Part shown: in pieces, positions 4,614 to 31,609 of the stretch
Layout of the letters: the number at the start of each line of letters is the position of its first letter
Numbering within the stretch: position 1 is the stretch's first letter
Source of the DNA: Candidatus Saccharimonadota bacterium
GTDB lineage: Bacteria; Patescibacteriota; Gracilibacteria; UBA4473
Assembly (NCBI GenBank): GCA_020632335.1
Contig: JACKFV010000001.1
Coordinates: 598,866 to 630,865 of the forward strand
Reading direction: 5' to 3'
Length of the DNA stretch: 32,000 bases
Translations under genes and position numbers: made by a program
The notes under the pieces: generated by a model
Databases searched by the model: none
What the model was told of the DNA's origin: nothing
Seen by the model: the letters and a program-made list of their open reading frames with translations, nothing else

Positions 4614-5069
4614 CTAGGAGAGTAAGAGGGTATCGGCCTCTGCGTCCAGCAAGCCGCCCAGCTGCGCTATGGCATTAGCGTCTAGTCCGGTGAGGGTACT
4701 GGGGCGTAGCACTACGCCAGACCCAGGGCAGAGCACCGTCACGCTCAGCTTCACGGGGTCATAGTTCCCCATGCCGTCAACGGTAAAGAGCATTTCTTCT
4801 GCTATGGTGAGGTTATCTAGCACGCCGAATGCCTTAGACCGGCCGTCAGTTGCCGCAGGGTCATAGAGGTACACGCAGCCCGCATATTGGGGGTCGCTGA
4901 TGGTGGTATACCGACCGAGCACAGCTCCCCGAGGGATGGGGCCACTGTGGGTAATGGGGACTATCAGCTGGTAGGTCTCGGCCCGGCGGAGGTCTGCAGT
5001 GCTGGACCGCGCCAAGATATTGGGGCTGTGGAGCGTGGTAGCAGCAGTAGCAGTGGGGGAATACGTCAT
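4614..5069 (-). CDS. hypothetical protein, weak resemblance to phage head-decoration (lambda gpD-like) proteins
   Basis: Start taken at ATG 5067-5069 (MTYSPTATAAT...). The segment PRGAVLGRYTTIS...YDPAATDGRSKAFGVLDN...LTGLDANAIAQLGG recalls the RGAVLG...AATDGS...ILAEDVDA pattern of decoration proteins. This comes from memory only. Confidence 0.45.
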   Translation of the reverse strand: MTYSPTATAATTLHSPNILARSSTADLRRAETYQLIVPITHSGPIPRGAVLGRYTTISDPQYAGCVYLYDPAATDGRSKAFGVLDNLTIAEEMLFTVDGMGNYDPVKLSVTVLCPGSGVVLRPSTLTGLDANAIAQLGGLLDAEADTLLLS

Positions 5070-5146
5070 AGCGAGGGGGGTTACGCAGCAGCAGTATAGC
5101 AAAAGTACTTGCGATGCACCGCGCGTGCACTACCCTCTTGGCAGGC

Positions 5147-5221
5147 ATCCCTGTAGTTTAATGGATAAAACGTCCCCCTCCTAAGGGGAAACTCCCGGTT
5201 CGACTCCGGGCGGGGATACCA
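5147..5221 (+). tRNA. tRNA-Arg (anticodon CCT), CCA encoded
   Basis: Hand-folded cloverleaf. Acceptor ATCCCTG/CGGGGAT (one G-T pair). D arm GTTT-AATGGATA-AAAC. Anticodon arm TCCCC-CTCCTAA-GGGGA. T arm CCCGG-TTCGACT-CCGGG. Discriminator A plus CCA. 75 nt. Confidence 0.9.
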
Positions 5222-5222
5222 C

Positions 5223-5251
5223 TTGACTTTATTATCTATCTATTGTATAGA
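5223..5251 (+). promoter_or_regulatory. sigma70-like promoter (TTGACT-17 nt-TATAGA) for the AT-rich islet genes
   Basis: TTGACT at 5223-5228, a 17-nt spacer, TATAGA at 5246-5251. Lies immediately 3' of the tRNA. Confidence 0.5.
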
Positions 5252-5307
5252 CAGTACAGTGTCTTTCGCAGTATCGGCAGTTAACGCATTATTATTGCAG
5301 GAGCGCT

Positions 5308-5330
5308 ATTTTTATTTTATTTTATTATTT
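5308..5330 (+). repeat. (ATTTT)n-type simple repeat in the 5' leader of the 5354 gene
   Basis: Reads ATTTTT ATTTT ATTTT ATT ATTT directly in the sequence. Confidence 0.6.
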
Positions 5331-5353
5331 CATCTAACAACAGTGTTTTATTT

Positions 5354-5836
5354 ATGAAAACAATTATTTTAATTCTCGGCACGCTCTGTGCCCTTCTTTT
5401 TGCTAGTACTACTACAACAGTACTCGCTCAGCAAGATACCGCGTCATCCGTGACCACCGTTTCTACTATTCCACTCCCGGACGGCTCTTCTATCATTACC
5501 CAAAGCAATGATCTTGATTCTCTTATTACTTGGAGAAATATTATTAGGCAGAAGCAACTGGAGATTTTCAGCACGAGTGAAGAAAGAGCCCAAAATCGTA
5601 TCGACTCCCTTGAGGAAGTTATCTTCCTTGCTTATGAGGAAATATCGGTTACATTGAATGAAGGTAAAGAGCAAGGGTACGCACTATCCTATATATTGCT
5701 GGTTTACCATATGGTGGATGCATTTGGTTTTATGGTTTTATCTTTTATTCTGGGAGTTGTTCTCACTTGGGAGGTCTTGCCACAAATCATTAACGATAAA
5801 CCAAAAATCATTAACCATAAACCAAAGAAGGGTTAA
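5354..5836 (+). CDS. exported protein with N-terminal signal peptide and C-terminal TM segment (AT-rich islet)
   Basis: Signal peptide MKTIILILGTLCALLFASTTTTVLA/QQ. Helical middle DLDSLITWRNIIRQKQLEIF. TM FGFMVLSFILGVVLTW. C-terminal tail contains an in-frame tandem repeat. Confidence 0.65.
   Translation: MKTIILILGTLCALLFASTTTTVLAQQDTASSVTTVSTIPLPDGSSIITQSNDLDSLITWRNIIRQKQLEIFSTSEERAQNRIDSLEEVIFLAYEEISVTLNEGKEQGYALSYILLVYHMVDAFGFMVLSFILGVVLTWEVLPQIINDKPKIINHKPKKG
5786..5827 (+). repeat. 21-bp tandem duplication (2 copies, 2 mismatches) inside the 5354..5836 CDS
   Basis: atcattaacgataaaccaaaa / atcattaaccataaaccaaag, encoding IINDKPK/IINHKPK. Confidence 0.9.
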
Positions 5837-5925
5837 GACAAAGGGGCCACCTGTTCCCTTACACATGCAGGATAATTCTTATCACAGGCGTAGTCTTACT
5901 ACTTCTGTGCAGCGCTCATACGCCC

Positions 5926-6201
5926 GTGATGGCTCAGGAGAGCTCTCAGCCTGTCTCCGTTATGACGGAGCGGCAACAGGCAACGGTGGATTCTTTAGAG
6001 AATCTCATCACCATAATGAGAGCTCAGATCGACACTATTGTGTCGGAGAGCGCTGATACAACCACCACGAATGCGGTGGAAAGTACTGATACTGATAAAG
6101 AAAATAGGGGACCAAGTGCTATGTTCTGGTTTGGAACAGTGGTGTTTTTTATACTTTTATTTATTGGTAGTGATTTCTCTAGGTTGTTTAAACCCTACTA
6201 A
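5926..6201 (+). CDS. paralogue of the preceding gene (signal peptide, helical region, C-terminal TM); true 5' end probably upstream near 5865
   Basis: The frame is open from 5821 and encodes ...CRIILITGVVLLLLCSAHTPVMA/QESS, a signal peptide homologous to MKTIILILG...VLA/QQ of the upstream gene. No in-frame ATG, GTG or TTG occurs before 5926. VDSLENLITIMRAQIDTIVSES parallels DLDSLITWRNIIRQKQLEIFSTS. C-terminal TM is FWFGTVVFFILLFIG. Confidence 0.55.
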   Translation: MMAQESSQPVSVMTERQQATVDSLENLITIMRAQIDTIVSESADTTTTNAVESTDTDKENRGPSAMFWFGTVVFFILLFIGSDFSRLFKPY

Positions 6202-7457: not shown

Positions 7458-9236
7458 ATGCCCGTAACTGCTCATGTGCTGAACTCCGCAGCGCCCCACA
7501 CCGGCACTAAGGCAAGCGACACCACTGTGTGTAGCTTCCGGACGCATTACCTGCGGGCTGGGCGGCTGCCGCATGCGGATACCCCCGCTCCCATCTGTAG
7601 TGATGTAGGGCCAGCCATACGCGTGCAGCCCTCTGCCTATGCCGTGTGGGTGGAGCGCACCGGGGGGAGTGACAGCTATGGAGGGTTCCACGCGCTGCTA
7701 CAGGTGGGGCCAGACGCCGCCATAGACGTGCCCTATAGCGGTGAGGGAGCGGTGGTGGGGATCATCCGTAATGCGGGGGTGCAGCCCGGGGCCATCACCA
7801 GTAGTGATGGGAGTGCGGAGGCAGCGCTGCAGTTCCTCCCCAACGGCCACACCATGACGGACCAGCAGCTGCGCGCCAGCCTAGCACCAGACTGGCCTGT
7901 GCGCATAGCCGACGTGACCAGCGCTGGGGTGAGTGATGGGCCGCTGGCCATGGGGGTCTTTGCCGGGGGGGTAGACATGCAGGGCAGCAGCATCACGGGG
8001 CTCCTCCCCAGCCCCGCAGACCCCACCGCTGCGGTGAGTAACGCGCAGTTGCAGGGCCTTCTCACCCAGCTGGGCAGCAGTGTGGTGCTTACCCTCACGC
8101 CGAATGGGGGCTGCTTTCCTCATCGGCTGAGCTGGACATCTAGCCTCAGTGGGAGTGGTTTCTTCACCGTATTGCGGAACGGGGTAGCCATCAGCGACCC
8201 CCTGCCCGAGAGCACGCTCAGCTACACCGACTATGACTTTGTCTATGACGAGGTCTTTTATCAGGTGCGGCAGCTCGACACCACCACGGGGCAGATCATC
8301 ACCTCGAATACCGTCGGTATGGTGCCCGAAGACTGCGTGGCGCCGCTAGCGGGTGATTACGGCGACGGGGCTGATGGGGCGCTAGTGCTGAGTAACACCA
8401 CCCACACGCTGCAGCGCGGGCAGGTGTACCGCTACAGCAGTGTGGTGGTGGATGACAGCACGCTGCGGTTTACGGGCAATGGCGGTACGGTGATCTACGT
8501 TGACGGTGACCTGAGTGTGACGGGCAATAGCACGCTGCAGGGTATGCCGGGTATAGACATGCCGCTCATCGAGGTAATGCTCAGTGGTACGGTGTATAGC
8601 CTGCTGGGGGGGCATGGCGCGCATGGCTCTGGGGGGAGTGGGGGAGACGCTACTACTGGCGGCCAGGGGGGGGCTGGTGGGGCTGGCACCGGGAGCTGGG
8701 GCACTGGCCAGGGTGGCGCGGGGGGCTACACTACGGTGAATATGACGGCGGGTGGGCTGCCGGGCTCTGCGGCGAGTATGCTGCAGGCAGGGGGTGGCGG
8801 TGGTGGCGGCGGCGCAGATACCATCGCTACCGGGGGCAAGGGGGGCAATGGCGGCGTGCTGAGCGGGCTGCAGCCGGGGGTATTCTGGCTGGTGCGGGGG
8901 GCCATCACCCTCGACAGCAGCGTCACGATAGACATTGCGGGTGCTACGGGCAGCGGCGGCATCGACGGTAACCCCGGGGGATACAACGCCACGGGGCCCC
9001 GCTATGGGGGTACGGGAGGGGGAGGTGGTGGCGCTGGAGGAGCTGACGGAGCGCACTGGTACTTCTGCAGCGAGGGGGCGCAGACCGTGGGGAGCTACAC
9101 CGCACTCCTCAGCGGAGGGAATGGCGGCCCCGGGGGAGACTCGCTCGGGCAGGCACCAGCGCCGGGGAGCGCCGGCACCAGTGGTACTGCGGGGGCAGCG
9201 GGCTCAGCGGGGGCAGTGCAGTTCATCGCCCTGTAG
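7458..9236 (+). CDS. tail-fibre-like protein with glycine-rich C-terminal half
   Basis: No signal peptide. The motif GSSITGLLPSPADPTAAVSNAQLQGL resembles the I-x-N-L-x-x-P-x-x-x-x-D-A-V-N-K-x-Y element of phage fibres. An FN3/Ig-like segment is present (LSWTSS...FYQVRQLD). GDYGDGADGALVLSNTTHTL starts a beta-helix-like segment. Residues ~384-588 are GGxGG-type glycine-rich repeats. Confidence 0.6.
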   Translation: MPVTAHVLNSAAPHTGTKASDTTVCSFRTHYLRAGRLPHADTPAPICSDVGPAIRVQPSAYAVWVERTGGSDSYGGFHALLQVGPDAAIDVPYSGEGAVVGIIRNAGVQPGAITSSDGSAEAALQFLPNGHTMTDQQLRASLAPDWPVRIADVTSAGVSDGPLAMGVFAGGVDMQGSSITGLLPSPADPTAAVSNAQLQGLLTQLGSSVVLTLTPNGGCFPHRLSWTSSLSGSGFFTVLRNGVAISDPLPESTLSYTDYDFVYDEVFYQVRQLDTTTGQIITSNTVGMVPEDCVAPLAGDYGDGADGALVLSNTTHTLQRGQVYRYSSVVVDDSTLRFTGNGGTVIYVDGDLSVTGNSTLQGMPGIDMPLIEVMLSGTVYSLLGGHGAHGSGGSGGDATTGGQGGAGGAGTGSWGTGQGGAGGYTTVNMTAGGLPGSAASMLQAGGGGGGGGADTIATGGKGGNGGVLSGLQPGVFWLVRGAITLDSSVTIDIAGATGSGGIDGNPGGYNATGPRYGGTGGGGGGAGGADGAHWYFCSEGAQTVGSYTALLSGGNGGPGGDSLGQAPAPGSAGTSGTAGAAGSAGAVQFIAL

Positions 9237-9496: not shown

Positions 9497-11197
9497 CTAG
9501 CGCAGTTTCTCTGCCTGCTCGCGCCGGGTTTTCTCCACCTGCAGGGCGGTGATGTACCCCTCCCACAGCCGCTCTACTACCTGCTCTGCCACCTCCTCGT
9601 CCTCTTGCTCTGCGGCCTGGTGGAGCTCCCAGGTGTTCAGCAGTGCGGTCTCCTCTGGGGTCAGGCTCTCGCCGGTGTGGAGCTTACGCAGCAGCGTGTG
9701 GGGCGGCGTACCGGGGGAGAGGAGGAGCAGCACCTCGGCGTCGAGGAAGTCCTCCACCACCGGAAAAAAGTACCGCACAAACCCCACAAATTCCTCCTCC
9801 CGCGTGAACCGCTCCCGGGACTCCGTATCCCGCTCCTTCAGGCGCTGGGGCTTTCTCGGTGGCGTTGTGAGCTGGAGGCGCTCTAGCTCAGCCATGAGGA
9901 GTTCCTTCGGCTGCCCCAGCGTGCCCGAGAGCAGGGTGAGGAAGTGCTCGCGCTCTATAGGCCGGGTAACGAGGTTCAGCAGTGGCAGGTAGGCGTCTAG
10001 CAGTGCTGTCTGGCCGCTGAGGGTGCCGTTGAGGAGTTTGCTGGCCATGGCATGCAGCAGCGCTTCCAGTGCATGGGGGGGGGTACGCAGCGCTGCATCA
10101 AGAGCGGGGGGCACGGTAGAGCTCGTCTGCCCACGGAGGGTGTCATCCAGGTCTTTCTCGCCCGCAGGCAGCTGCACCAGGTGAGGGGTCATGCCCGCGC
10201 GTAGTGTCATCTCCACGGCACGGAGCGTGGCTTTCTTCCCCGCGGTGTCATTATCAAAGCACAGGTGTAGCGCGTTGGTTACTCGCCTGAGCATGCGCAG
10301 GTGGTCCTCCGTCAGGCTGGTGCCGCAGGTGGCCACCGTGTGCGCATAGCCTGCCGTGTGCGCTGTGATGACGTCAAAGTTCCCCTCCACCAGCAGTGCC
10401 GCACCGTGCTGAGGGATGGCCTTCCGCGCTCTGTGGTAGCCAAAAAGCGTTTTGGACTTTATATACAGCGGGTTCTCCGGACTATTGACGTACTTGGCGC
10501 GCTGGTGGGTGGTACTCTCGGGGAGGATATCTCGGCCACTGAAGGCGATGATCAGCGGGTTCTCCGCCGTGGAGCGGGCGTCATACACCGGGGTGATCAC
10601 CCGCCCCCAGAACCGGTCTTGCATGGTTTTCTCCTCGCCATAGGTGTACGCCACGCCGCTGTGCTGCAGTTCCTCCCGGGTGTAGCCCTGCTGCAGCAGC
10701 CAGTGCGTCAGGCCGTCCTTGGCGTCCCCTCCATAACCGATGCCCCAGCGCTGCTGCGTGGGCGTGTCTATCTGCCGCTGGGTGAGGTAGTCCTGCGCGG
10801 TGCTACTGTGCTGCAGCTGCTGGAGGAAGTACTGGTTGGCCGCCTGGTGCAGCTGGTAGAGGCGCTCTTTAGTGTCCTTCTGCTGTGGGGTGGCCTTGTG
10901 TGAGCGCTTTGGCATCTCCATACCGGCTTCATCAGCCAGGAGTTCTACTGCCTCCAGGAAGCTCAGGTTCTCCGCCTTCTCGATAAACCGGATGACATCA
11001 CCCCCCTCACTCGCGCCAAAGTCATACCAGAACTGCCGGTCACTACTCACGCTGAAGCTGGGGGTTCGCTCGTTGCGGAAGGGACTGCGGCACATGTAGT
11101 TGCGTCCGCGCTTCTGTAGTTCGGCATAGCGCCCCACCACGGCCACGATGTCCGTGCGGTCCTTGAGGTCGTCGAGGAAGCGCTCCCAGCTCTGCAT
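9497..11197 (-). CDS. dnaG: DNA primase
   Basis: N-terminal primase zinc-ribbon-like region (PFRNERTPSFSV). RNA polymerase core. TOPRIM motifs LLVEGNFDVI and CFDNDTAGKKAT. The zinc ligands are substituted (see findings). Confidence 0.9.
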   Translation of the reverse strand: MQSWERFLDDLKDRTDIVAVVGRYAELQKRGRNYMCRSPFRNERTPSFSVSSDRQFWYDFGASEGGDVIRFIEKAENLSFLEAVELLADEAGMEMPKRSHKATPQQKDTKERLYQLHQAANQYFLQQLQHSSTAQDYLTQRQIDTPTQQRWGIGYGGDAKDGLTHWLLQQGYTREELQHSGVAYTYGEEKTMQDRFWGRVITPVYDARSTAENPLIIAFSGRDILPESTTHQRAKYVNSPENPLYIKSKTLFGYHRARKAIPQHGAALLVEGNFDVITAHTAGYAHTVATCGTSLTEDHLRMLRRVTNALHLCFDNDTAGKKATLRAVEMTLRAGMTPHLVQLPAGEKDLDDTLRGQTSSTVPPALDAALRTPPHALEALLHAMASKLLNGTLSGQTALLDAYLPLLNLVTRPIEREHFLTLLSGTLGQPKELLMAELERLQLTTPPRKPQRLKERDTESRERFTREEEFVGFVRYFFPVVEDFLDAEVLLLLSPGTPPHTLLRKLHTGESLTPEETALLNTWELHQAAEQEDEEVAEQVVERLWEGYITALQVEKTRREQAEKLR

Positions 11198-11248
11198 AGC
11201 GGTAGTGTAGTGGCCGCAGAGGAGGGTTCAAGTAATCGGTGGTTTTCG

Positions 11249-11279
11249 TTGACAAATAGCCACTTTTATGGCATATAAC
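11249..11279 (+). promoter_or_regulatory. sigma70-like promoter (TTGACA ... TATAAC) for the 11316 lipoprotein gene
   Basis: TTGACA at 11249-11254 and TATAAC at 11274-11279 with a 19-nt spacer. Alternatively CATATA with a 17-nt spacer. Confidence 0.4.
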
Positions 11280-11315
11280 GGGAAATTATTTTTTCACCCA
11301 TACACAATTTTAATT

Positions 11316-11855
11316 ATGTTTAGATTATTTACGCGTATTGCACTCCTTTTGTTCTTTGTCACCACACTTCCAGGGTGTGTTCCCTATTCTCTTCCTCCAA
11401 GAACACTTTCTGCGCCGCACTATTGCATGCAGATACCATTATTAACAGAAACGGTTCCAGAGACTTGTATACTGGACAAGCATGTACTAGCATCAGTAGC
11501 CGGGGCGCTCCTCCATCATCCAGATGTGGTAGAGGACTCGACGGGTTTTCGTCTAGGAGAGATAGAATTCTCCATAGTCCCAGAGGCTGATACTCTCTGG
11601 TGTCCTCAGCTAAAGACGGTGCCAGATCTGTATTATTGTTTACAGCAGTATTATAAACAACAAGTGATTCTTGATGGATATGCCTACTATTATGTAATGT
11701 ATTGTCTCGACGAGCATGAAATTATAATATTTGCTGCTAAGAATAAAAGTCGGACACATCATAATAATATGCAGGAGTATAGCGTTATCATAGTCATAGA
11801 TAATAGACCACTACCAGAATTATCTTGCAACAAAACTGAGGGCACACAAATGTAA
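11316..11855 (+). CDS. lipoprotein, function unknown (AT-rich islet)
   Basis: Start taken at ATG 11316, giving MFRLFTRIALLLFFVTTLPG-C (signal peptide plus lipobox). The track ORF begins at 11268. Strongly AT-rich codon usage compared with neighbouring genes. Confidence 0.6.
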   Translation: MFRLFTRIALLLFFVTTLPGCVPYSLPPRTLSAPHYCMQIPLLTETVPETCILDKHVLASVAGALLHHPDVVEDSTGFRLGEIEFSIVPEADTLWCPQLKTVPDLYYCLQQYYKQQVILDGYAYYYVMYCLDEHEIIIFAAKNKSRTHHNNMQEYSVIIVIDNRPLPELSCNKTEGTQM

Positions 11856-11873
11856 GTGTGACCCCCCATACAC

Positions 11874-11915
11874 ATATCCCTTTAGTTTTGCTATCAAGAT
11901 CAAAGGGATATTTTA
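11874..11915 (+). terminator. hairpin terminator after the 11316 gene (overlaps the pilT stop)
   Basis: Perfect 10-bp stem ATATCCCTTT (11874-11883) / AAAGGGATAT (11902-11911), followed by TTTTA. Confidence 0.65.
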
Positions 11916-12998
11916 TACCCCGTTTGCCTCTATACCATTGGTCTTGAGGATATTGGTCAGTTGCTCGCTATTGCGGCAGTACTCATAGGCGGTGTCTTTA
12001 GTGATGATGCCGCTCAGCACCAGCCCCGCCAGCGACTGCTCCAGCTGCACCATCTCGCCGCTGGTATCGGCCTGGAAGGCATTGGGGATCTGGTACACTT
12101 TATTCTGCCGGATGTAGTTCTGGATAGCGTAGTTACTGGTGAGGATCTCATACGCCAGCACCAGCCCTGCGCCATCTGCCCGGGGCACGAGCCGCTGAGA
12201 GATCACCATGCTGAGTGTGGTAGCCAGCTGGCTGCGTACTTGCTCCTGCTGGTCGGCCGAGAAGACATCTATGATGCGGCTGACCGTCTGCGGCCCAGAG
12301 CTGGTATGCAGCGTGCTGAAGACCACATGCCCCGTCTCGGCCAGGGTGAGCGTAGCGGAGATAGCCTCTAGGTCTCGCATTTCGCCTACCATGATCACGT
12401 CTGGGTCGGCCCGCAGGCAGCTCTTTATCCCGCTGTGGAAGTCCCGCACGTCTCGCCCTACCTCCCGCTGCTGGATGACAGAGGTATCTGACTGCAGCAG
12501 GTACTCCACGGGGTCCTCTATGGTGATGATATGCCCGGTCTGTTGCTCCGCCCGGTGCTGGAGGAAACTGGCCAGCGTGGTGCTCTTCCCCTGCCCTGTG
12601 GGCCCCACCACCAGCACCAGGCCGTTGCGCATGTGCGCTATGCGCTCCAGGACAAACTCCGGGAAGCCCAGGTCTTGTATCGGGAAGGGCCGCTCACGGA
12701 TGATACGGAAGCTCACCCCCGTGCCCTTATCCTCGTGGAAGGCATTGCCCCGGAGGCGCGTCCCCCCCGCCGTCCGGAAGACAAAATCCACCTGGTGCTG
12801 CTGCTCCAGCTGGAGCTGGTCTTGCTCTTGCAGCATAGCGCCCAGCATCTCGAGGATTTGCTCGTTGGTGATGGGCTCGCCCACGGCCTGCAGTACGGTA
12901 TTGCGCCGCAGGTAGATGCGAGCATTGGGGCTGAAGTGTACGTCACTACAGAGCTCCTGCGCGGCGTAGTCGATGATCTGTTCGTAGTCCAGCGGCAT
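11913..12998 (-). CDS. pilT: type IV pilus retraction ATPase PilT family
   Basis: Walker A GPTGQGKST. Asp box IITIEDPVEY. Walker B DVIMVGEMRD. His box FSTLHTSS. PilT-type signature AIQNYIRQNKVYQIPN (compare AIRNLIREGK). Confidence 0.85.
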   Translation of the reverse strand: MPLDYEQIIDYAAQELCSDVHFSPNARIYLRRNTVLQAVGEPITNEQILEMLGAMLQEQDQLQLEQQHQVDFVFRTAGGTRLRGNAFHEDKGTGVSFRIIRERPFPIQDLGFPEFVLERIAHMRNGLVLVVGPTGQGKSTTLASFLQHRAEQQTGHIITIEDPVEYLLQSDTSVIQQREVGRDVRDFHSGIKSCLRADPDVIMVGEMRDLEAISATLTLAETGHVVFSTLHTSSGPQTVSRIIDVFSADQQEQVRSQLATTLSMVISQRLVPRADGAGLVLAYEILTSNYAIQNYIRQNKVYQIPNAFQADTSGEMVQLEQSLAGLVLSGIITKDTAYEYCRNSEQLTNILKTNGIEANGV

Positions 12999-17377: not shown

Positions 17378-17485
17378 GAGAAAGGGTGATTAGAAATAAA
17401 ACCTATCTACCCCCATCTTTAGCCATCATATTCCTTTATGCAAGCGGTTTCATGCCATATTACCCTTGACGAGTGCTGAAAATCA

Positions 17486-18400
17486 TTAGGAAGAGAAATA
17501 TGCCGTTACTCGGTCCCAGAGGGTCTCTGGCTCTTTATTCGCCTCTGCTGACTGCTCTGCGGTGGTGGCTACTACGGGCTTCTTATACTCGGGGAAGTCC
17601 CGCCGTGGGGTGCCGTCTTCGTCATAGAGGCTGGGGTAGCGGTCACGCATCATGGCCGAGTAACTGGCCCGCGTGATGCCGTTTTCCTCACTATACTGTG
17701 CCCAGAGCCGGTTGTTCTCGTACGCGCTGCCACCCTTGGGGTAGATCACCTCGTGCATGCCTCGCCGCCCAGCGCTGGAGGCCGCCACCACGGCATAGAG
17801 GTCTCCGGGGGTCTCATACCCTCCTTTGGGCATGTGCAGATGCCAGTACTGCTCTACGTAGTCCAGTTGCTCCACGGGCCCCAGTGCTCGTAGCGCCTCT
17901 GGGGTGATCTGCAGCTCCTTCGCGGCGGCCTTGCCTATCTGGATATAGCCGTAGTAGCCGCCATTATTCCCGATGTCATGCCGCATCGTCCCCGCCGTTT
18001 CTATATGGAAGGTATGCAGCACCCACTCCTCCGGCACGCCAATACTCGCTGCTACGCTGGCTACCTTGGCCTGTACCTCAGGGCTGGCTATGGCATGCCA
18101 GGTCTTCACCACATCCCCGTTGAACTTCGCCTTGGCGATTTTCTCAAATACTCTCCCTCCTATGTGCTCCCCTTTACGGATATCCTGGCACTCCTGCTCT
18201 ATCTGCTCTTGCGTGTAGCCCTCCTCCACCAGCTCCGCCGTCACGGTATTGTACGTCTCTTCCCCCAGCAGTTTCTTGAAGAAAAAATCTGTCAGGACTT
18301 CTTGCAGGTAGTTCGTCAGCGCACTCGGTCGCTCTACTGCTGCAGCAGGCGCCTCCTCGTGAGAAGCAATAGCCAGTGATTCCGGTACATTATCAGTCAT
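17486..18400 (-). CDS. lytic transglycosylase / lysozyme-like (SLT-type) domain protein, no signal peptide
   Basis: Start taken at ATG 18398-18400 (MTDNVPES...), 10 nt after the upstream stop. SLT-like catalytic region FHIETAGTMRHDIGNNGGYYGYIQIGKAAAKEL (E-S/T ... G-L/Y-x-Q). The C-terminus is ETLWDRVTAYFSS. Confidence 0.6.
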   Translation of the reverse strand: MTDNVPESLAIASHEEAPAAAVERPSALTNYLQEVLTDFFFKKLLGEETYNTVTAELVEEGYTQEQIEQECQDIRKGEHIGGRVFEKIAKAKFNGDVVKTWHAIASPEVQAKVASVAASIGVPEEWVLHTFHIETAGTMRHDIGNNGGYYGYIQIGKAAAKELQITPEALRALGPVEQLDYVEQYWHLHMPKGGYETPGDLYAVVAASSAGRRGMHEVIYPKGGSAYENNRLWAQYSEENGITRASYSAMMRDRYPSLYDEDGTPRRDFPEYKKPVVATTAEQSAEANKEPETLWDRVTAYFSS

Positions 18401-18410
18401 AGAGAGGAGA

Positions 18411-19511
18411 TTAAGAAGCAAACCAAGAAGACACCCGTTCGAGGAAACCCTCAGCCGTGGCAGCATCAGCGGCTTGCTGTGCCGCCTGCTGCTCTCGCTC
18501 TCGGGCAGCTGCTTGCTCCCGGCGCTCCCCCAGGGTGTACATGTAGGGCGTCGGGTCTATGTGCTGGTTCCGCTTACTGCTTGTCCGCTGTGAGACATCA
18601 TCTACCAGAAAGAAGCGGAAGTCCAGATGCGCCCCAGTACTCCGGCCGGTATTCCCCAGCGTCCCCAAGACCGTCATGGTGTCTACCCGGTCTCCTGCCC
18701 GCAGCTCTGGGGTTATTTTATCCAGATGCGAGTAGTACGCGGTGACGTACTGGGCGCTCTCCTGCCCATTCTCGTCAGTACAGCGCGAGACGCAGTAGCG
18801 CACCTTCACGCAGTTGCCCGCACCGCCTGGCTGAGAGAATACTTGTTCCACCAGCCCTGGCCCCATGGCGACAATAGGGTAGCCCTCCTTCCCCGCTTCC
18901 ACCGCAAAATCCATCCCCTCATGGAAGTCATGCCCTCCAAATACTGTACGATTCCCATAGCCCGAGGTAGTGCGGATACCATGCTCCTGTCGATTCTCCT
19001 TAATAGGATTCCGCTCCAGGGGCTGCATATCCATATCCATAATGGGAATAAACCAGCCATCTAGCGGCACCACTGGCAACTCCAGTGACTGCTCCGTGAG
19101 CTCCTTCTGGCTCATGGGCAGGGTGTTGAGGCGCTGCGAGGCACTGGTATTCGTCATCTGCTGCAGCACTTCCTTCCCGCAAGTCTTATAGACCTCCATA
19201 GCCTGCGTCGGGCTCATCTGCTGCACATACTGCTGCACAGAGGGATTGGCGCCCTCCGTAGCAGATACCCAGCCCAGTTTCTCCAGCACTGCTTGCATCA
19301 GCATCCCTGCCCAGTTCTCTCGCACCCACTCCGTAACCCCCTGCTCTGTACGATCCCCCCCATCATAGTAGGCATCGCCAGGCCGCTCCAGACCATCTCG
19401 AGGAGCTCCCATCCCTGCCGCGAGCACCTCAGCCATAGTGGGCTCTGAGGGCATATCTGGCGTATCGGTATTACGATGAGAGAAGGATTCTATCCCCATA
19501 AGAGAGCGCAT
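18411..19511 (-). CDS. M23-family peptidase domain protein, no signal peptide
   Basis: HEGMDF (HxxxD), YYSHLD and GNTGRSTGAHLDFRF (variant of the GxTGxSTGPHLHFE block). One of the few genes here with an SD-like AAGGAG upstream of the ATG. The C-terminus is EGFLERVSSWFAS. Confidence 0.75.
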   Translation of the reverse strand: MRSLMGIESFSHRNTDTPDMPSEPTMAEVLAAGMGAPRDGLERPGDAYYDGGDRTEQGVTEWVRENWAGMLMQAVLEKLGWVSATEGANPSVQQYVQQMSPTQAMEVYKTCGKEVLQQMTNTSASQRLNTLPMSQKELTEQSLELPVVPLDGWFIPIMDMDMQPLERNPIKENRQEHGIRTTSGYGNRTVFGGHDFHEGMDFAVEAGKEGYPIVAMGPGLVEQVFSQPGGAGNCVKVRYCVSRCTDENGQESAQYVTAYYSHLDKITPELRAGDRVDTMTVLGTLGNTGRSTGAHLDFRFFLVDDVSQRTSSKRNQHIDPTPYMYTLGERREQAAAREREQQAAQQAADAATAEGFLERVSSWFAS

Positions 19512-19567
19512 AATCTCCTTATTTATGCCACAAAGCAGCCCGTATCGTCAAGTTCCTGCGCGAGAGT

Positions 19568-19596
19568 TTGACACCCGTCATCACCTCCGCTACGCT
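19568..19596 (+). promoter_or_regulatory. sigma70-like promoter for uvrA (TTGACA-17 nt-TACGCT)
   Basis: TTGACA at 19568-19573, a 17-nt spacer, TACGCT at 19591-19596. Confidence 0.5.
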
Positions 19597-19643
19597 CAGA
19601 GCACGCGCTCGAGCTCGGGCGAGTTTTTGTAGTTCTTCTCTGC

Positions 19644-26658: not shown

Positions 26659-28350
26659 CTAGCGCAGTTGCTCGGCCAGGTGCTGCACCGCACGGAGGGT
26701 GAGCGTCCAGAGCTGGGGGTAGTCTACAGCGAGTGTCGTCCCATCAGCAGAGCGCTTCACGGCCTCGGGCAGCACTGCTTGTTCGTCCTCGGCCATCACT
26801 CCATAGTGCGCTCGGGGGGTAGCGTCGGGCTCATAGGCCTTCTCCCAGTAGTAGCGCTGCACGGGCAGTTGTAGCACCTTCTCCAGCGCCTGCTTGCCGC
26901 TTAGGGGCTCTGCATCACGCTTGCGCACACTGTGGGAGGGGGTCAGGTAAGCGCTGGCCAGCACGTTGCCGCCGGCTACCTCTATCTTCTCGCTGGGGGT
27001 GGAGGTGTCTACCCCTAGGCGATAGTTCCCCAGCCCCAGCACATTGGCCTGGCTGTAGGTGGTGGGCACGTCCCCGAGGGCAAAGACATTCGGCGCGGTG
27101 ACGGTCTGGTCTATCCCCATGGCCACGCTATAGTCACTGCTGACGGTATTTCGCAGCCCCATAGCCACGGCCTGGCTCCCCGCAGCAGTGCAGTCCTGCC
27201 CCTGCGCTAAGGACTGTGGCCCACTGGCCGTACAGCCATTCCCCAGCGCTACGGCCTGCTGGTGACTGGCGGTATTATTCACCCCTTGCGCCAAGGACTG
27301 GTCACCACTGGCGGTGGTGCCATTCCCCCCGGCTAGTGCCTGGGGCCCGCTAGCGACGGTGTCCTTCCCCAGGGCGATGGCCTGGTCTCCCCCAGCGGTG
27401 CACTGGTTCCCCATAGCTAAAGACTGCGCTCCGCTACTGCTGGCCTGGTAGCCATGCGCGAGCGACTGGTCACCGCCCGCCGTGCTGCCATTCCCCAGCG
27501 CTACTGACTGCGCCCCAGTGGCATAGGTGCCATACCCATGGGTGAGCGACTCATTGCCCTGAGCGTTGGTGGCGTTGCCGTAGGCCGTACTGCTGGCTCC
27601 ACTGGCGGTGAGGTTGGTGCCTATGGCGGTAGCATTCCACCCCGTGGCCAGGGAGCCGCTCCCCACCGCGCTGGTGCTGGCCCCCATGGCCACCGCTCGC
27701 ATACCCGCAGCGCTGCTCAGCTGCCCCGTGGCAAAAGCCCCCACACCGCTGGCCACGCACTGCTGTCCACTGCTGAGGCTGTAGCTGCCGCTGGCGGTGG
27801 TGTCCTTCCCACAGGCAAAGGAGTGGGATCCCACATTGGGGGCATTCCACTGCGCGGCGGAGACTTCTCCGGCTCGGAGGGCTCTCTTGGAGGGATCCCA
27901 CGCAAAGACCGTCCCCGCGTCACTCCGAACGGTGAGGGGGCTGTCGGCGCCATTTTCGCTCAGCAGGCCGCCCCCTGCCGTACCGCCCGTGCCCACATGC
28001 AGCGCCACCAGCGGGCTGAGCACCCCCACCCCTACCGCGCCATTATGCGCTATGCTGCCGGAGTAGTCCGCAGGGGTATGCGGGTAGCCGCTATTACCCG
28101 CGGGGCTGCCGGCTTGCTTCCAGTCTTGGTCTTCCGCGCGGGTGAAGATCAGCCAGCCCTCGGCGTTATACCAGCTATAGGTGCCGTCGCCGTTGGAGAG
28201 GTACTTCCCGCTATTGACGTCCCAGGTTACGGTGGAGCCATCAGCGTTCTCGGCCGTGTAGCTGCCGTCATCATTATCCCGCACCTCGGCCCCCTGCTGG
28301 AGGAGCGTAAGCGAGACATCTGCCGGAGGGCGGTGGTCAGTGTGGGGCAT
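26659..28350 (-). CDS. tail-fibre-like protein: YadA/Hep_Hag-type 14-residue repeats plus C-terminal peptidase-S74 intramolecular chaperone domain
   Basis: Neck motif NGAVGVGVLSPLVALHVGTGG. Residues ~175-425 are about 18 degenerate repeats of the S-x-A-x-G-x-x-[ST]-x-A-S-G type. The C-terminal part TPSHSVRKRDAEPLSGKQALEKVLQLPVQRYYW...HYGVMAEDEQAVLPEAV...VDYPQLWTLTLRAVQHLAEQL matches the endosialidase-type chaperone domain, with Ser472 and Lys477 spaced as in the Ser-Lys dyad. Confidence 0.75.
   Translation of the reverse strand: MPHTDHRPPADVSLTLLQQGAEVRDNDDGSYTAENADGSTVTWDVNSGKYLSNGDGTYSWYNAEGWLIFTRAEDQDWKQAGSPAGNSGYPHTPADYSGSIAHNGAVGVGVLSPLVALHVGTGGTAGGGLLSENGADSPLTVRSDAGTVFAWDPSKRALRAGEVSAAQWNAPNVGSHSFACGKDTTASGSYSLSSGQQCVASGVGAFATGQLSSAAGMRAVAMGASTSAVGSGSLATGWNATAIGTNLTASGASSTAYGNATNAQGNESLTHGYGTYATGAQSVALGNGSTAGGDQSLAHGYQASSSGAQSLAMGNQCTAGGDQAIALGKDTVASGPQALAGGNGTTASGDQSLAQGVNNTASHQQAVALGNGCTASGPQSLAQGQDCTAAGSQAVAMGLRNTVSSDYSVAMGIDQTVTAPNVFALGDVPTTYSQANVLGLGNYRLGVDTSTPSEKIEVAGGNVLASAYLTPSHSVRKRDAEPLSGKQALEKVLQLPVQRYYWEKAYEPDATPRAHYGVMAEDEQAVLPEAVKRSADGTTLAVDYPQLWTLTLRAVQHLAEQLR
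27076..27828 (-). repeat. in-frame 42-bp-period coding repeats (Hep_Hag-like) inside the fibre gene
   Basis: Examples are GAQSVALGNGSTAG, GDQSLAHGYQASSS, GAQSLAMGNQCTAG, GDQAIALGKDTVAS, GPQALAGGNGTTAS and GDQSLAQGVNNTAS. Confidence 0.8.
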
Positions 28351-28370
28351 AGGAGGGAGGGTAAGAGAGA

Positions 28371-28561: not shown

Positions 28562-29941
28562 TTAGATAAAGGAAGACGTGAAGCTATCTCGTGCTTTGCC
28601 GGTGTTATTCGCCGTGAGGGTCTGTGCATGGGGGCCCAGGCCATAGCAGCCCGAGACGCTGTAGTCCCCCGCACGGAGGATAAACCCCGCACTGGTCGTC
28701 ACCTGCAGGGCGCTGGTGTTGCCATACTGCTGCTGCGAGCTCCCGCTCAGCACGGCGTAGTAGACCTGCCCGGTGGTCATGCCCGTGATGGTCAGCGCAC
28801 TGCGATCCGCCACCTGGCTATAGGCTAGTGGCCTGAGGCTACAGTCTGTTGCGCGGAGGATACCGCCGCTCATCACCTGCACGCCGTAGTGGGCGAGGTC
28901 TGCGCGGATATGCAGCACCGAGCCGTAACTCCCATAGTGGCTATAGTAGAGGCGTGGGCTGGAGTCCAGCAGTTGCACCCGGGCTAAGTCTTGCACGCTG
29001 CTGTAGTAGAGGCGTGGGCTGGAGCTACCGCTGAGGACCACCTCCCCCTGCCCCCCCACCGTGCTGTAGTAGAGCAGCGCTGCGCCACTGGTGTCGCTCG
29101 CGCATCGTCCACGGCCGAGCAAACTCATGCCCTGGAGCGTCAGCGTGCCGGTGCCCGTGTGGGAGAGAAGGCTCTGCCCCTGCAGGCTGCTACTGCGGAG
29201 AAGGAGCGCCCCGGTGCGCACGCTCACACTGCTCTGCTCGCCCAGGGTGCTGTACTGCACTGTCAGCTGGCCGTTACTCGTGGCGGTCAGCATCGCCCCG
29301 GCAGAGATCACCGTGTGCTCTACCCGGGGGCTGAGCTGCCCCGTGAGCACTACCCGAGCGTTGGTCGTCACCTCCACCGCGGTGAACTGCCCGCCCTGCA
29401 CGCTACTGAGCAGACACTGGGCCTGACTGGTTATCTGCACCTCATAGAAAGAAGCGGTGCAGTTGCGGGTATCTAGCAGCGCGCCATCACGCACGCTCAC
29501 CCGGTGGTAGGCCCCGGCGGTGCCCTGGTCTGCGTACCAGCGGGCGCCGGCCACCACGCACTCGGTATAGCGGCTGTCCCCCCAGGGGAAGGCATCTACC
29601 TCATCTCCCACTGCGCCGGAGGCAGCATTGCCCCGGTCATCTCGTAGCGCAGTCAGGCGGTTGCTGGTCAGGTCATAGCTGCCCTGCCAGGGCGTGGTAC
29701 TGTGGGCCGTCAGCACGGTGGCCTCGGGGCCCATGGTGCTCTCGGTCAGGGCTCGCATACCTATAAGCGACAGCCCGGGCGTCCCGCGGGCGTAGTCCGT
29801 CACCCAGTACTGGCAGCCAGGGGTGAGCGCTCCTTGGTCTCGTAGCGAGAGGACCTCCGCCCATGGCAGTGCATGTGAGGCCATGGTGCAGGGCTCCAGA
29901 GCAGCGGTAGTGGTAATGAAAGGGGTGTATTGCAGGCTCAT
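28562..29941 (-). CDS. beta-helix-like repeat protein (tail-spike/fibre-like)
   Basis: 459 aa with no signal peptide. After residue ~150 there are ~20-residue turns of similar pattern (ARVVLTGQLSPRVEHTVISAGAMLTATSNGQLTVQYSTLGEQSSVSVRTGALLLRSSSLQG...). SPRLYYS occurs twice, 20 aa apart. Confidence 0.55.
   Translation of the reverse strand: MSLQYTPFITTTAALEPCTMASHALPWAEVLSLRDQGALTPGCQYWVTDYARGTPGLSLIGMRALTESTMGPEATVLTAHSTTPWQGSYDLTSNRLTALRDDRGNAASGAVGDEVDAFPWGDSRYTECVVAGARWYADQGTAGAYHRVSVRDGALLDTRNCTASFYEVQITSQAQCLLSSVQGGQFTAVEVTTNARVVLTGQLSPRVEHTVISAGAMLTATSNGQLTVQYSTLGEQSSVSVRTGALLLRSSSLQGQSLLSHTGTGTLTLQGMSLLGRGRCASDTSGAALLYYSTVGGQGEVVLSGSSSPRLYYSSVQDLARVQLLDSSPRLYYSHYGSYGSVLHIRADLAHYGVQVMSGGILRATDCSLRPLAYSQVADRSALTITGMTTGQVYYAVLSGSSQQQYGNTSALQVTTSAGFILRAGDYSVSGCYGLGPHAQTLTANNTGKARDSFTSSFI
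28941..29024 (-). repeat. 24-bp direct repeat (1 mismatch) 60 bp apart inside the beta-helix gene
   Basis: ct[a/g]tagtagaggcgtgggctggag occurs at 28941-28964 and 29001-29024. Both copies encode SSPRLYYS. Confidence 0.85.
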
Positions 29942-29953
29942 GAGGGGAGGGGA

Positions 29954-31609
29954 TTACCGAGGAGATACCGCCCCAATGACGTAGTGCACGCTGAGGGTCA
30001 GCGCGTTATCCCCCTGGGGTGGGGTGGGGCTCTCTCGGCGGCTCAGTGCGCGGAATGCCGCTATCTCTTCTCCATAGAGGATGATCTCCGTCCAGCGGCC
30101 GGCCTCATGCCCGGTGCTGGCGGTGGCGTCGTTATACGGGGTGAAGGCTGGCAGTTGCACCCCATCTGCTGTGTAGTTCATGCTGTGGTCTATGAGCATC
30201 TGTGCCTCGGCTACGCTCTCGCTTACGTTGGGGTCGGTGGTGTCGCCCTTGGCCCGGAGCAGCAGGTCCTTGGCGGGCCGCACCTGCACATGCGCATGGC
30301 TGCAGTGGTAGCCCGGTGGCGGGGTGAGCGCGCTGGGGGTGAGGGCATCTACCACGGCGACCTCATAGCTCACCGTGCGGGTCTCGGTATCGGGCAGGGT
30401 GTCGGTCAGCAGTGGCGCGCTGCTCAGCGGTATCATCTGCCCCGTGCTGCGGTTCTCCCACTGCTCGTACACCAGCACGCCGCTAGTGGTCATGGCCTGG
30501 GCATAGCGCAGCAGGTCACCGATGCGGTATTCGGGCGTATTGGCCGTGGTGGCTCCTCCTGCCCAGTAGTAGCGATCCTCTGTAGTGGTGATAAGCCCAC
30601 TGCCGGTACCACAGGGCTGCACGATGTACTGCGGGGTATAGGGCGTGAGGCCGTCCAGCAGGGTGTCGGTCACGGTGAGGGGGCTCCCGTTCTCCACCAC
30701 CAGGTGCCGGAGGAAGGGCGTGCGCAGGCCAGTGGCGGGGTCACTATCACACAGTGGGAGGACGCTATAGTGCTGCTCTGCAGTGCCGCAGGGGGCGAGG
30801 TCTGCCATGCTGGGCGCCGCGGAGAGCACCGCTCCGGTGGTGACGTTGTACCACACCCGGCTCATCAGCGTGCCATCGGTGGTACTCCAGAAGCTCAGTA
30901 GCTGCACCGTCTCCCCCATGGCGTAGCCCGTGCCACTGGCGATGGCGGTATAGCACTCGGTGGTGGGGGCTGACTGCGTGATGTCCTCCGTGAAGAGCGT
31001 GGTGGTGGCGGTCTGGTCTGCACCGGTGATGGGGTCTGTGTAAGTGATGCTGAGCGTGCCAGAGACCTCGTCGTACACGGCCTCCCGCAAGATGCTATTG
31101 CCGTTCTGGTCATACCCCAGGGCAAAGGCGTAGTCGGTCTGTGGGGTGGGGGCTGGGGGTACTTCGCTCAGCGGCATGGCGCTCAGGCCGGTGGTGATGC
31201 CCTCCTCGTCACTTACCTGCGCGTGAAATGTCGTGGCGGAGAGTGCCCGCAGCTGCACCTGGGTGAGGGAGGCCACGTTCACCGTACAGAGCTCACTGAG
31301 GGTCACCCCATAGCTCACCCAGAGCGCGTCTGGGTTTGGCGTCACGTAGTGCGTCCCGCTGAGGCTGGGTACCGTCTGGTACTGGTTTACGCCGCTGGGG
31401 TCTACCTGCTGGTAGGGGTAGTTGCTCACCAGTACCTCCACGCTGCCGGTGGGGGCTTGCAGGCTCAGCATATTCAGCGCCTGTACGTCTAAGATGCACT
31501 GCTCGCCCGTGGCCATCTCTACCCAGTAGTTGTCCCTCCCGCTACGAGCAAAAGCCCCGGGGTGATCTGCAGAGCTGAGTGGCCGACGCTGGTGGTAGAG
31601 GTCAAACAT
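29954..31609 (-). CDS. first gene of the fibre operon; large modular protein of unknown family
   Basis: 551 aa with no signal peptide. It has recurring modules with W/Y-x-N-x-x-T-G-like turns (WYNVTTGAVLSAAP, WENRSTGQMIPLSSAP, YTDPITGADQTAT). Two modules end in PCGT. A 12-nt C/T-only junction links it to the next gene. Confidence 0.55.
   Translation of the reverse strand: MFDLYHQRRPLSSADHPGAFARSGRDNYWVEMATGEQCILDVQALNMLSLQAPTGSVEVLVSNYPYQQVDPSGVNQYQTVPSLSGTHYVTPNPDALWVSYGVTLSELCTVNVASLTQVQLRALSATTFHAQVSDEEGITTGLSAMPLSEVPPAPTPQTDYAFALGYDQNGNSILREAVYDEVSGTLSITYTDPITGADQTATTTLFTEDITQSAPTTECYTAIASGTGYAMGETVQLLSFWSTTDGTLMSRVWYNVTTGAVLSAAPSMADLAPCGTAEQHYSVLPLCDSDPATGLRTPFLRHLVVENGSPLTVTDTLLDGLTPYTPQYIVQPCGTGSGLITTTEDRYYWAGGATTANTPEYRIGDLLRYAQAMTTSGVLVYEQWENRSTGQMIPLSSAPLLTDTLPDTETRTVSYEVAVVDALTPSALTPPPGYHCSHAHVQVRPAKDLLLRAKGDTTDPNVSESVAEAQMLIDHSMNYTADGVQLPAFTPYNDATASTGHEAGRWTEIILYGEEIAAFRALSRRESPTPPQGDNALTLSVHYVIGAVSPR

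Follow-up and report, generated by a model that had tools for sequence, protein, structure and literature searches.

A common C-terminal tail on adjacent M23 and lytic-transglycosylase-like enzymes of a Gracilibacteria-related bacterium: a candidate docking helix

Two adjacent genes for predicted wall-degrading enzymes, an M23 metallopeptidase and a lytic-transglycosylase-like (LT-like) protein, were found on the minus strand of a 32,000-nt stretch of bacterial DNA (contig JACKFV010000001.1, positions 598,866 to 630,865 of the forward strand), which is called the window below and to which all coordinates refer. The two proteins carry a shared 14-residue motif at their extreme C-termini, named the tag here. 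The layout of the pair, the strength of the resemblance between the two tails and the possibility that the tail is a docking helix bringing both enzymes to one partner are described below.

The gene pair

18411..19511, minus strand: M23 metallopeptidase gene, 366 aa; open reading frame (ORF) call, Pfam PF01551, and the endolysin, tape-measure and minor-head M23 families of PHROG
18612..18926, minus strand: M23 catalytic domain, aa 196-300; PF01551 at 51.2 bits against a cut-off of 28.7
18456..18539, minus strand: M23 linker YTLGERREQAAAREREQQAAQQAADAAT, rich in Glu, Gln, Ala and Arg, about aa 325-352; AlphaFold2 helix 325-365 with a predicted local distance difference test score (pLDDT) below 60
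18411..18455, minus strand: tag copy 1, AEGFLERVSSWFAS and its TAA stop; hydrophobic moment 0.51 (last 11 residues)
18401..18410, minus strand: pyrimidine-only junction TCTCCTCTCT, 10 nt from the M23 stop to the LT start; a start leader typical of the genome, in a place that suits translational coupling
17486..18400, minus strand: LT-like gene, 304 aa; start at 18400 in both the NCBI and the Logan call
17639..18103, minus strand: LT (lysozyme-like) domain, aa 100-254; matches to PDB 9udh and 9k2v_E, to phrog_4928 and to phrog_196 (baseplate hub)
17486..17530, minus strand: tag copy 2, PETLWDRVTAYFSS and its TAA stop; hydrophobic moment 0.45; AlphaFold2 helix 294-303, low confidence

The M23 protein consists of a largely helical orphan N-terminal region (aa 1-175), followed by the M23 domain, the linker and the tag, and in the LT protein, likewise, a helical orphan region at the N-terminus (aa 1-99) precedes the LT domain, after which come a linker and the tag. 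The length of the M23 protein varies with the gene caller, being 366 aa in the NCBI call and 341 aa, from Met26, in the Logan call. Both genes end in TAA directly after the tag.

A first-pass annotation of this DNA had described adjacent M23 and lysozyme-like ORFs, and their coordinates and 10-nt gap are confirmed, with both genes on the minus strand. It had also singled out the C/T-only junction; TCTCCTCTCT is indeed there, but it is nothing special, being the ordinary start context of this genome (9 of 20 starts are alike). Because no terminator-like site was found between M23 and LT, while a weak promoter-like site lies ahead of the HU gene downstream, the simplest reading is that the two genes probably form one co-transcribed bicistronic unit.

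The two catalytic domains

Both wall-cutting assignments were upheld, by PF01551 for M23 and by the 9udh and 9k2v_E matches for LT. The M23 protein also matched M23 chains in the PDB (6smk and 5kqb, with E from 3e-7 to 1e-5). Its motifs H197xxxD201 and H262 are present, and the usual HxH is replaced by H295-L-D297 (18621-18629, minus strand), a variant that was found also in an unrelated M23 protein (P0005). The Asp of HLD may still ligate zinc in the predicted M23 site.

Residues 100-254 of the LT protein matched PDB 9udh_A, named a "lytic transglycosidase", at E 1.7e-10 with HIETAG aligned to afETge, and 9k2v_E, the LT domain of cyanopodophage A4 gp28, at E 0.0026, here too with an aligned ET motif; the catalytic Glu is presumed to lie in HIETAG. 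No Pfam family was found for the LT protein at E <= 0.1, including SLT (PF01464), and an LT homologue, P0027, scored 20.5 bits against the SLT cut-off of 21.3, just under threshold. Both catalytic domains are divergent new members of known families. AlphaFold2 models of both proteins had a mean pLDDT of 42-43 and were unusable for the N-termini and the tails.

The shared tail

The pattern common to the two tails is E-x-hydrophobic-hydrophobic-[ED]-R-V-[ST]-[SA]-aromatic-F-[AS]-S-COOH. The hydrophobic residues, mostly aromatic, stand at i, i+1, i+4, i+7 and i+8, which corresponds to one face of a three-turn helix, and polar positions are kept in both tails too, namely [ED]-R, [ST] and the terminal [AS]-S. 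Both AlphaFold2 models give helical tails at very low confidence, and the tail is predicted to be an amphipathic helix. Since both of its faces are kept, specific recognition would fit better than a generic affinity for lipid. The linkers ahead of the two tails had been described alike as rich in Ala, Gln and Glu; this suits the M23 linker, whereas that of LT is of an Ala/Thr/Glu/Ser/Pro type. Inspection by eye revealed no WXG or YxxxD motif of type VII secretion, no beta-signal of outer-membrane proteins and no sortase-type sorting signal.

End-anchored and ungapped, the two 14-mers score 26 in BLOSUM62, against -13.5 ± 7.9 at random (P = 2e-5 in the random model). This is the highest score among 5253 ORF-tail pairs in the window, the second best being 18. 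A control with real proteins drew on 80 unrelated bacterial loci, which gave 8949 within-locus pairs; 3 of these pairs reached at least 26, all of which were full-length paralogs with Smith-Waterman scores of 691-1256 over the remainder of the chains, and the best non-paralogous pair scored 22. The remainders of M23 and LT score 42 in the same comparison, hence the two proteins have no other homology with each other. Correction for ~30 adjacent or ~435 total gene pairs leaves P at about 6e-4 to 9e-3. Within the window the tag pattern ends 2 of 103 long ORFs, plus one spurious ORF, and a degenerate DNA pattern for the tag and stop occurs at exactly two sites in the window and at none in shuffles. 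The shared motif reported at the extreme C-termini is thus real and statistically unusual, its score being reached in the control by paralogs alone. BLASTP by itself rates the tail at E = 0.33, and we consider the resemblance real, not overwhelming.

A recent local duplication or gene conversion of the tail was also considered and ruled out, because 24 of the 45 nt are identical and 4 of the 5 identical residues are encoded by different codons. The similarity would be either old and held by selection, or convergent.

Convergence without any shared function, by chance or composition in the helical C-termini of two fast-evolving orphan regions, is the most serious alternative to a functional tag, and is regarded as doubtful. 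Only two instances exist and the BLASTP value is poor; moreover, a better 14-mer match occurs at non-equivalent positions of the same two proteins:

M23 aa 36-49 (19365-19406, minus strand, N-terminal region) and LT aa 190-203 (17792-17833, minus strand, catalytic domain): APRDGLERPGDAYY against MPKGGYETPGDLYA, BLOSUM62 score 39, chance-looking

Helices inside the LT domains of unrelated homologues reach a score of 27 when matched to the tags, and the many genes scanned in the first-pass annotation impose an implicit multiple-testing burden. On the other side stand the probability at the fixed extreme C-terminus, which stays low after correction, the maximum of 22 among non-paralogous controls, and the fact that the match falls on adjacent, functionally complementary enzymes, both without signal peptides.

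Start codons and export signals

18401..18466, minus strand: alternative upstream extension of LT, MLPRLRVSSNGCLLGLLLNLLS, 22 aa (326-aa ORF); signal-peptide-like, overlapping the tag-coding end of M23, probably untranslated
19512..19643: divergent intergenic region between M23 and uvrA, holding AAGGAGATT-ATG, a classical Shine-Dalgarno (SD) sequence for M23

No transmembrane (TM) segment was found in the pair, the maximum Kyte-Doolittle means over 19 residues being 0.95 and 1.03. The M23 ORF begins at the first possible start after an in-frame TGA. By inspection, no dedicated predictor being used, no signal peptide was found in M23 under any start or genetic code, nor in LT from ATG 18400; reading the TGA as sense would add 26 residues to M23, RRGGRVSNSRAGTGRYGLLCGINKEI, which contain no Met. 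The earlier statement that neither protein has a signal peptide therefore holds for M23 and for LT from ATG 18400, and is qualified by the signal-like extension that LT would gain from ATG 18466, a disfavoured start. The concern raised together with the tag, that re-assigning the start might reveal a cryptic signal peptide, thus applies to LT only and to an unlikely ATG, and not to M23.

ATG 18466 is unlikely to be the start of LT because it has neither an SD sequence nor the pyrimidine leader that ATG 18400 has; because ATG 18400 sits 10 nt past the M23 stop, fit for translational coupling; because two independent gene calls, NCBI and Logan, both take 18400; and because codons as T-rich as those of the tag can be expected to read as Leu-rich in another frame.

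Leaders with at least 75% pyrimidine at -12..-1 were found at 9 of 20 gene starts, compared with 8.8% of all ATGs. They include uvrA, HU, several lipoprotein genes, the tail-fibre-like gene and ATG 18400, which suggests a non-SD mode of initiation in this lineage. The leaders are CT-rich and G-poor, as in TCTCTTCTTCTC and TCCCCTCCCCTC (sites 18401-18412, 17378-17389, 19632-19643, 1818-1829, 28351-28362 and 29942-29953). M23 is the sole start among the 20 examined that has a classical AAGGAG SD sequence.

Relatives of the two proteins

Word-indexed searches found no orthologue of either protein: LT retrieved itself only, and M23 retrieved itself and four generic M23 proteins of at most 36% identity over the domain. 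An exhaustive phmmer search with LT against 1.84 billion (1.84e9) representative proteins gave 730 matches (E <= 1e-3), all within aa ~100-260, so that none of the 730 covers the N-terminal 99 residues or the tail; no tag-like ending was seen among the top 150 of them. Peptide-seeded scans found no relative of either protein in IMG/VR, and none of LT in the JGI metagenomes.

Among the LT homologues, two proteins of ~1000 aa (P0031 and P0053) have an M23 domain at about 637-733 and, C-terminal to it, LT at about 830-950. Others are fusions of the LT domain with a tape measure and LysM (P0018), with DUF4280 and CHAP (P0020) or with DUF2345 (P0027); we take DUF4280 to be PAAR-like and DUF2345 to be of the VgrG type. 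Three stand-alone homologues (P0011, P0015 and P0017) have neither an M23 neighbour in their contigs nor a tag. In PHROG, the LT domain matched baseplate-hub families and the M23 domain matched minor-head and tape-measure families. From these matches the LT domain family appears to occur mainly on injection machines, in device-delivered proteins without signal peptides.

A subgroup of LT-bearing proteins (P0014, P0051, P0055 and P0073) has a conserved extreme C-terminal tail of its own (NMHI.IP..S... and then F..M(S/N)..L..), the end of which has a hydrophobic spacing like that of the window tag. Three of its members are ~1000 aa long, and P0014 is a truncated call of 285 aa. It may be that the LT domain is repeatedly followed by a terminal helix. 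A search of the literature turned up nothing specific on hydrolases that lack a signal peptide and have a C-terminal helix.

A shared docking helix

The explanation that we prefer, tentatively and with rather low confidence, is that the tail is a shared amphipathic docking or address helix, which co-targets two complementary muralytic enzymes independently of Sec. The bicistronic unit would give rise to a peptide-cutting M23 enzyme and a glycan-cutting LT enzyme, neither of which would be exported by Sec, and in each enzyme a linker would lead to the same terminal amphipathic helix of three turns, whose hydrophobic face is aromatic. The helix would serve as a protein-docking address peptide and bind one common partner, perhaps a machine for export or loading outside Sec, or else a cell-surface or injection device. 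Docking would bring M23 and LT to one place, so that both cut the same patch of wall, and two polypeptides would then reproduce the M23-then-LT module known from the single chain of podophage ejection proteins. We infer the helicity of the tail, the binding of a partner and the identity of that partner. An address peptide is proposed on four grounds: the lack of a Sec signal in M23, two activities that complement each other, the apparent co-expression of the genes and the device-type relatives of LT. The lineage also speaks for it, since the organism is Gracilibacteria-related and sister lineages in the candidate phyla radiation (CPR) are episymbionts or predators, which are believed to attack the walls of their hosts (PMC8080830). 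A docking peptide for a particle or fibre was one of the options in the first-pass annotation, and it gains some weight because the LT domain family occurs mainly on injection devices.

Several findings weigh against this proposal. The tag is known from two instances in one genome, and the higher-scoring internal match between the same two proteins indicates that short similarities do arise; the AlphaFold2 models are too poor to show the tail. No orthologue by which to gauge the conservation of the tail was found in the 1.84 billion representatives, the JGI metagenomes or IMG/VR. A strict DNA pattern for the tag and stop, which recovers both window copies, had 0 matches in the JGI metagenomes and IMG/VR; the search was confined to this strict form, as looser ones would be swamped by chance matches. 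Neither a third tagged protein nor a partner or receptor was found in the window or in the public collections searched, and the tag set stays at two proteins. The pair is not flanked by genes for secretion or for a device, the sole candidates being PilT at ~5 kb and the tail-fibre-like gene at ~7 kb. Finally, the window M23 is 28-29% identical to the M23 domains of ejection proteins, compared with 36% to generic M23 domains, and because it is not specifically close to the former, the M23-LT parallel is one of architecture and not evidence of a recent split.

A more far-reaching form of the docking proposal would make the tail the address label of an undescribed Sec-independent route that loads or exports a matched pair of wall-cutting effectors to breach a host wall; this is improbable. 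The bacterium, a Gracilibacteria-related CPR member, would in that case probably be host-dependent, its route would run through a type IV pilus or secretion apparatus or a phage-derived device, and further effectors elsewhere would share the tag.

An address peptide, if the tail is one, would provide a sequence handle on the effectors that an uncultivated CPR lineage secretes or loads, and a clue to how wall-degrading enzymes are delivered without Sec signals, which is a gap in the understanding of attack by episymbionts and predators. If the resemblance is due to chance, the locus holds just two lineage-specific muralytic enzymes.

Other explanations of the tail

That the tail lies flat on the cytoplasmic membrane as an amphipathic helix and anchors both enzymes there is unlikely. 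Its C-terminal place, its amphipathic periodicity and its aromatic face (W, Y, F), which is suited to the interface, agree with such an anchor, and the hydrophobic moments of M23 and LT are near the 0.57 that this scale gives for the tail of E. coli FtsA. The FtsA stretch ...WIKRLNSWL... presumably resembles FLERVSSWF, which we take as a lead only. However, each tag contains one acidic and one basic residue, giving a net charge of 0, or of -1 with the carboxylate, and has Glu upstream, whereas to our knowledge the known membrane-targeting sequences are cationic; on this ground the membrane helix suggested in the first-pass annotation fits poorly. The helix is only ~11 residues long, its polar face is kept too, which is needless for binding to lipid, and without export an anchor on the cytoplasmic face would hold both enzymes away from the wall.

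Mutual association is more doubtful still. The tails would pack together, or into a small bundle, to form a heteromeric bifunctional M23-LT hydrolase, and the motif would be expected on these two proteins only, as was found at every search depth. The heptad-like hydrophobic pattern is compatible with helix-helix packing, and one-chain M23-LT fusions are known elsewhere. At three turns the helices are short to make a stable coiled coil, though, and the route of either enzyme to the wall would be left unexplained.

Least probable of all is that the two are ordinary exported housekeeping hydrolases with incidental tails, LT being made from ATG 18466 with a Sec signal peptide and M23 leaving by an unrecognised route: MLPRLRVSSNGCLLGLLLNLLS does have two Arg followed by a ~10-residue Leu-rich core, with a small residue (Ser) before the annotated Met, but apart from the reasons against this start given above, 66 nt would have to be dual coding over the M23 tail, and M23 lacks a signal peptide in any reading.

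Neighbourhood, lineage and other features of the window

Downstream of the pair and on the same strand lie HU and then an orphan of 151 aa that has one TM segment and a promoter-like site of its own, with efp and yidC beyond; uvrA is divergent and upstream of M23, and pilT, dnaG, pdf and sod are farther off. No holin, spanin or other phage lysis context was found near the pair. A holin-independent endolysin pair, as had been proposed, is weakened by these housekeeping neighbours (HU, uvrA, efp and yidC). The only secretion ATPase in the window is a clear PilT (TIGR01420, 364 bits), and no VgrG, PAAR or tape-measure gene was found there. The other features are the following:

26659-28350, minus strand: tail-fibre-like gene, 563 aa, with YadA-head repeats and a C-terminal Peptidase_S74 (endosialidase chaperone) domain; matches phage long-tail-fibre PHROGs
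28562-29941 and 29954-31609, minus strand: two large ORFans directly upstream of the tail-fibre-like gene, no family match
4614-5102, minus strand: ORF like the lambda head-decoration protein D (gpD), PF02924, weak and sub-threshold (E 1e-4)
5147-5221, plus strand: tRNA-Arg(CCT), adjoining the gpD-like ORF
5001-6000: low-GC island (44.6% GC) encoding a signal-peptide protein, beside the gpD-like ORF and the tRNA-Arg(CCT)
7458-9236, plus strand: Gly-rich ORFan, 592 aa, no family match
11268-11855, plus strand: ORFan between dnaG and pilT, within a second low-GC island (45.6% GC, 11001-12000)

The fibre gene and its two ORFans may be a phage-derived fibre or adhesin module, and the gpD-like ORF, the tRNA and the low-GC island may be the remnant of an integrated element. 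A huge-phage origin of the 630-kb contig, raised by the tail-fibre-like and gpD-like genes, was rejected in view of its frequent strand switching, its uvrA, yidC, efp, HU, dnaG, pdf and sod genes, and the Gracilibacteria relatives of its UvrA.

Identical (100%) short contigs were found in the Logan assemblies of SRR12358675 and SRR12358676. In a collection of 5.8 billion proteins, the closest UvrA sequences are 65-72% identical and are named Candidatus Gracilibacteria; those of GTDB representatives reach at most 56%, with a metagenome-assembled genome of Peregrinibacteria first, and show no synteny. Judged by these UvrA matches, the organism is Gracilibacteria-related. Two Gracilibacteria UvrA relatives have 38-41% GC and a conventional LysM-M23 gene 3-4 kb upstream of uvrA, the product of which, in one of the two, has a membrane segment at its N-terminus. 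The tagged pair is absent beside uvrA in the nearest Gracilibacteria relatives (UvrA 72%), and in public data it appears confined to this high-GC lineage.

The stops of 27 confident genes are TAA in 15, TAG in 11 and TGA in 1, the sole TGA being at 4517-4519. TGA is nevertheless the commonest stop trinucleotide in the window of ~58% GC (860, against 389 and 754), and it was not found in frame inside real genes. One Gracilibacteria UvrA relative (L087, 3284-6031) has 4 in-frame TGAs. These counts suggest that the lineage, high in GC and related to the UGA-recoding Gracilibacteria, makes hardly any use of UGA; the triplet could be a rare Gly codon (code 25), or the lineage could be in a state before or after reassignment. 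Reading the tagged pair in code 25 (TGA as Gly) was tried and dropped, for both gene ends stay as they are (TAA) and M23 gains no signal peptide.

Comparison with known systems

Type IV secretion substrates, such as the wall-degrading XVIPCD effectors of Xanthomonas and those of Dot/Icm, include peptidoglycan hydrolases without signal peptides that are recognised by their C-termini. The window tag, with hydrophobic residues at -3/-4, Ser or Thr at -5/-6 and Glu farther upstream, resembles what we take to be the statistics of Dot/Icm signals. XVIPCD, on the other hand, is a domain of ~120 aa in contrast to the 14-mer found here, and the 32-kb window holds no coupling protein of a type IV secretion system and no VirB genes, PilT being all there is.

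The C-terminal anchors of E. coli PBP5 and PBP6, which are themselves wall-active, and the membrane-targeting sequences of MinD and FtsA share with the tag an extreme C-terminal place after a linker and an amphipathic periodicity. These helices are cationic and the PBPs are first exported by Sec, while the charge of the window tag is neutral to slightly negative and M23 lacks a signal peptide.

The cargo-loading peptides of encapsulins and the encapsulation peptides of microcompartments follow the same cargo-tag logic as proposed for the window pair: unrelated enzymes carry, past a linker, a common terminal peptide of ~10-20 residues that docks one partner, and the microcompartment peptide is an amphipathic helix. 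The tag departs from their known consensus motifs, no shell or encapsulin gene was found near the pair, and wall hydrolases would have no reason to be encapsulated.

Type VI secretion and tail-device fusions (P0027, P0020 and P0018) have a homologous LT domain, are delivered independently of Sec and attach a muralytic domain to a device. The attachment is a covalent fusion there, and at most a short terminal peptide here.

Podophage ejection proteins offer a parallel in domain content. Cyanopodophage A4 gp28 (PDB 9k2v chain E) has both LT and M23, and its C-terminal lytic part touches another protein of the ejectosome (PMC12002296). Like P0031 and P0053, it shares with the window pair the LT domain family and the M23-then-LT order, and such proteins have no signal peptide since they are delivered by a machine. 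They differ in being one chain of ~1000 aa, as against two separate proteins of 366 and 304 aa, and in having a helical-bundle N-terminus of ~600 aa, which is absent here, the N-termini of the pair being without homologues. Furthermore, the pair lies in a housekeeping neighbourhood, its M23 is not specifically related to theirs, and the window tag does not occur on the phage proteins. If the docking proposal is right, the phage module of M23 plus LT that breaches walls would here be split in two and joined by a shared peptide. The possible address tag would then be a variation on a known principle, that of short terminal peptides common to unrelated proteins.

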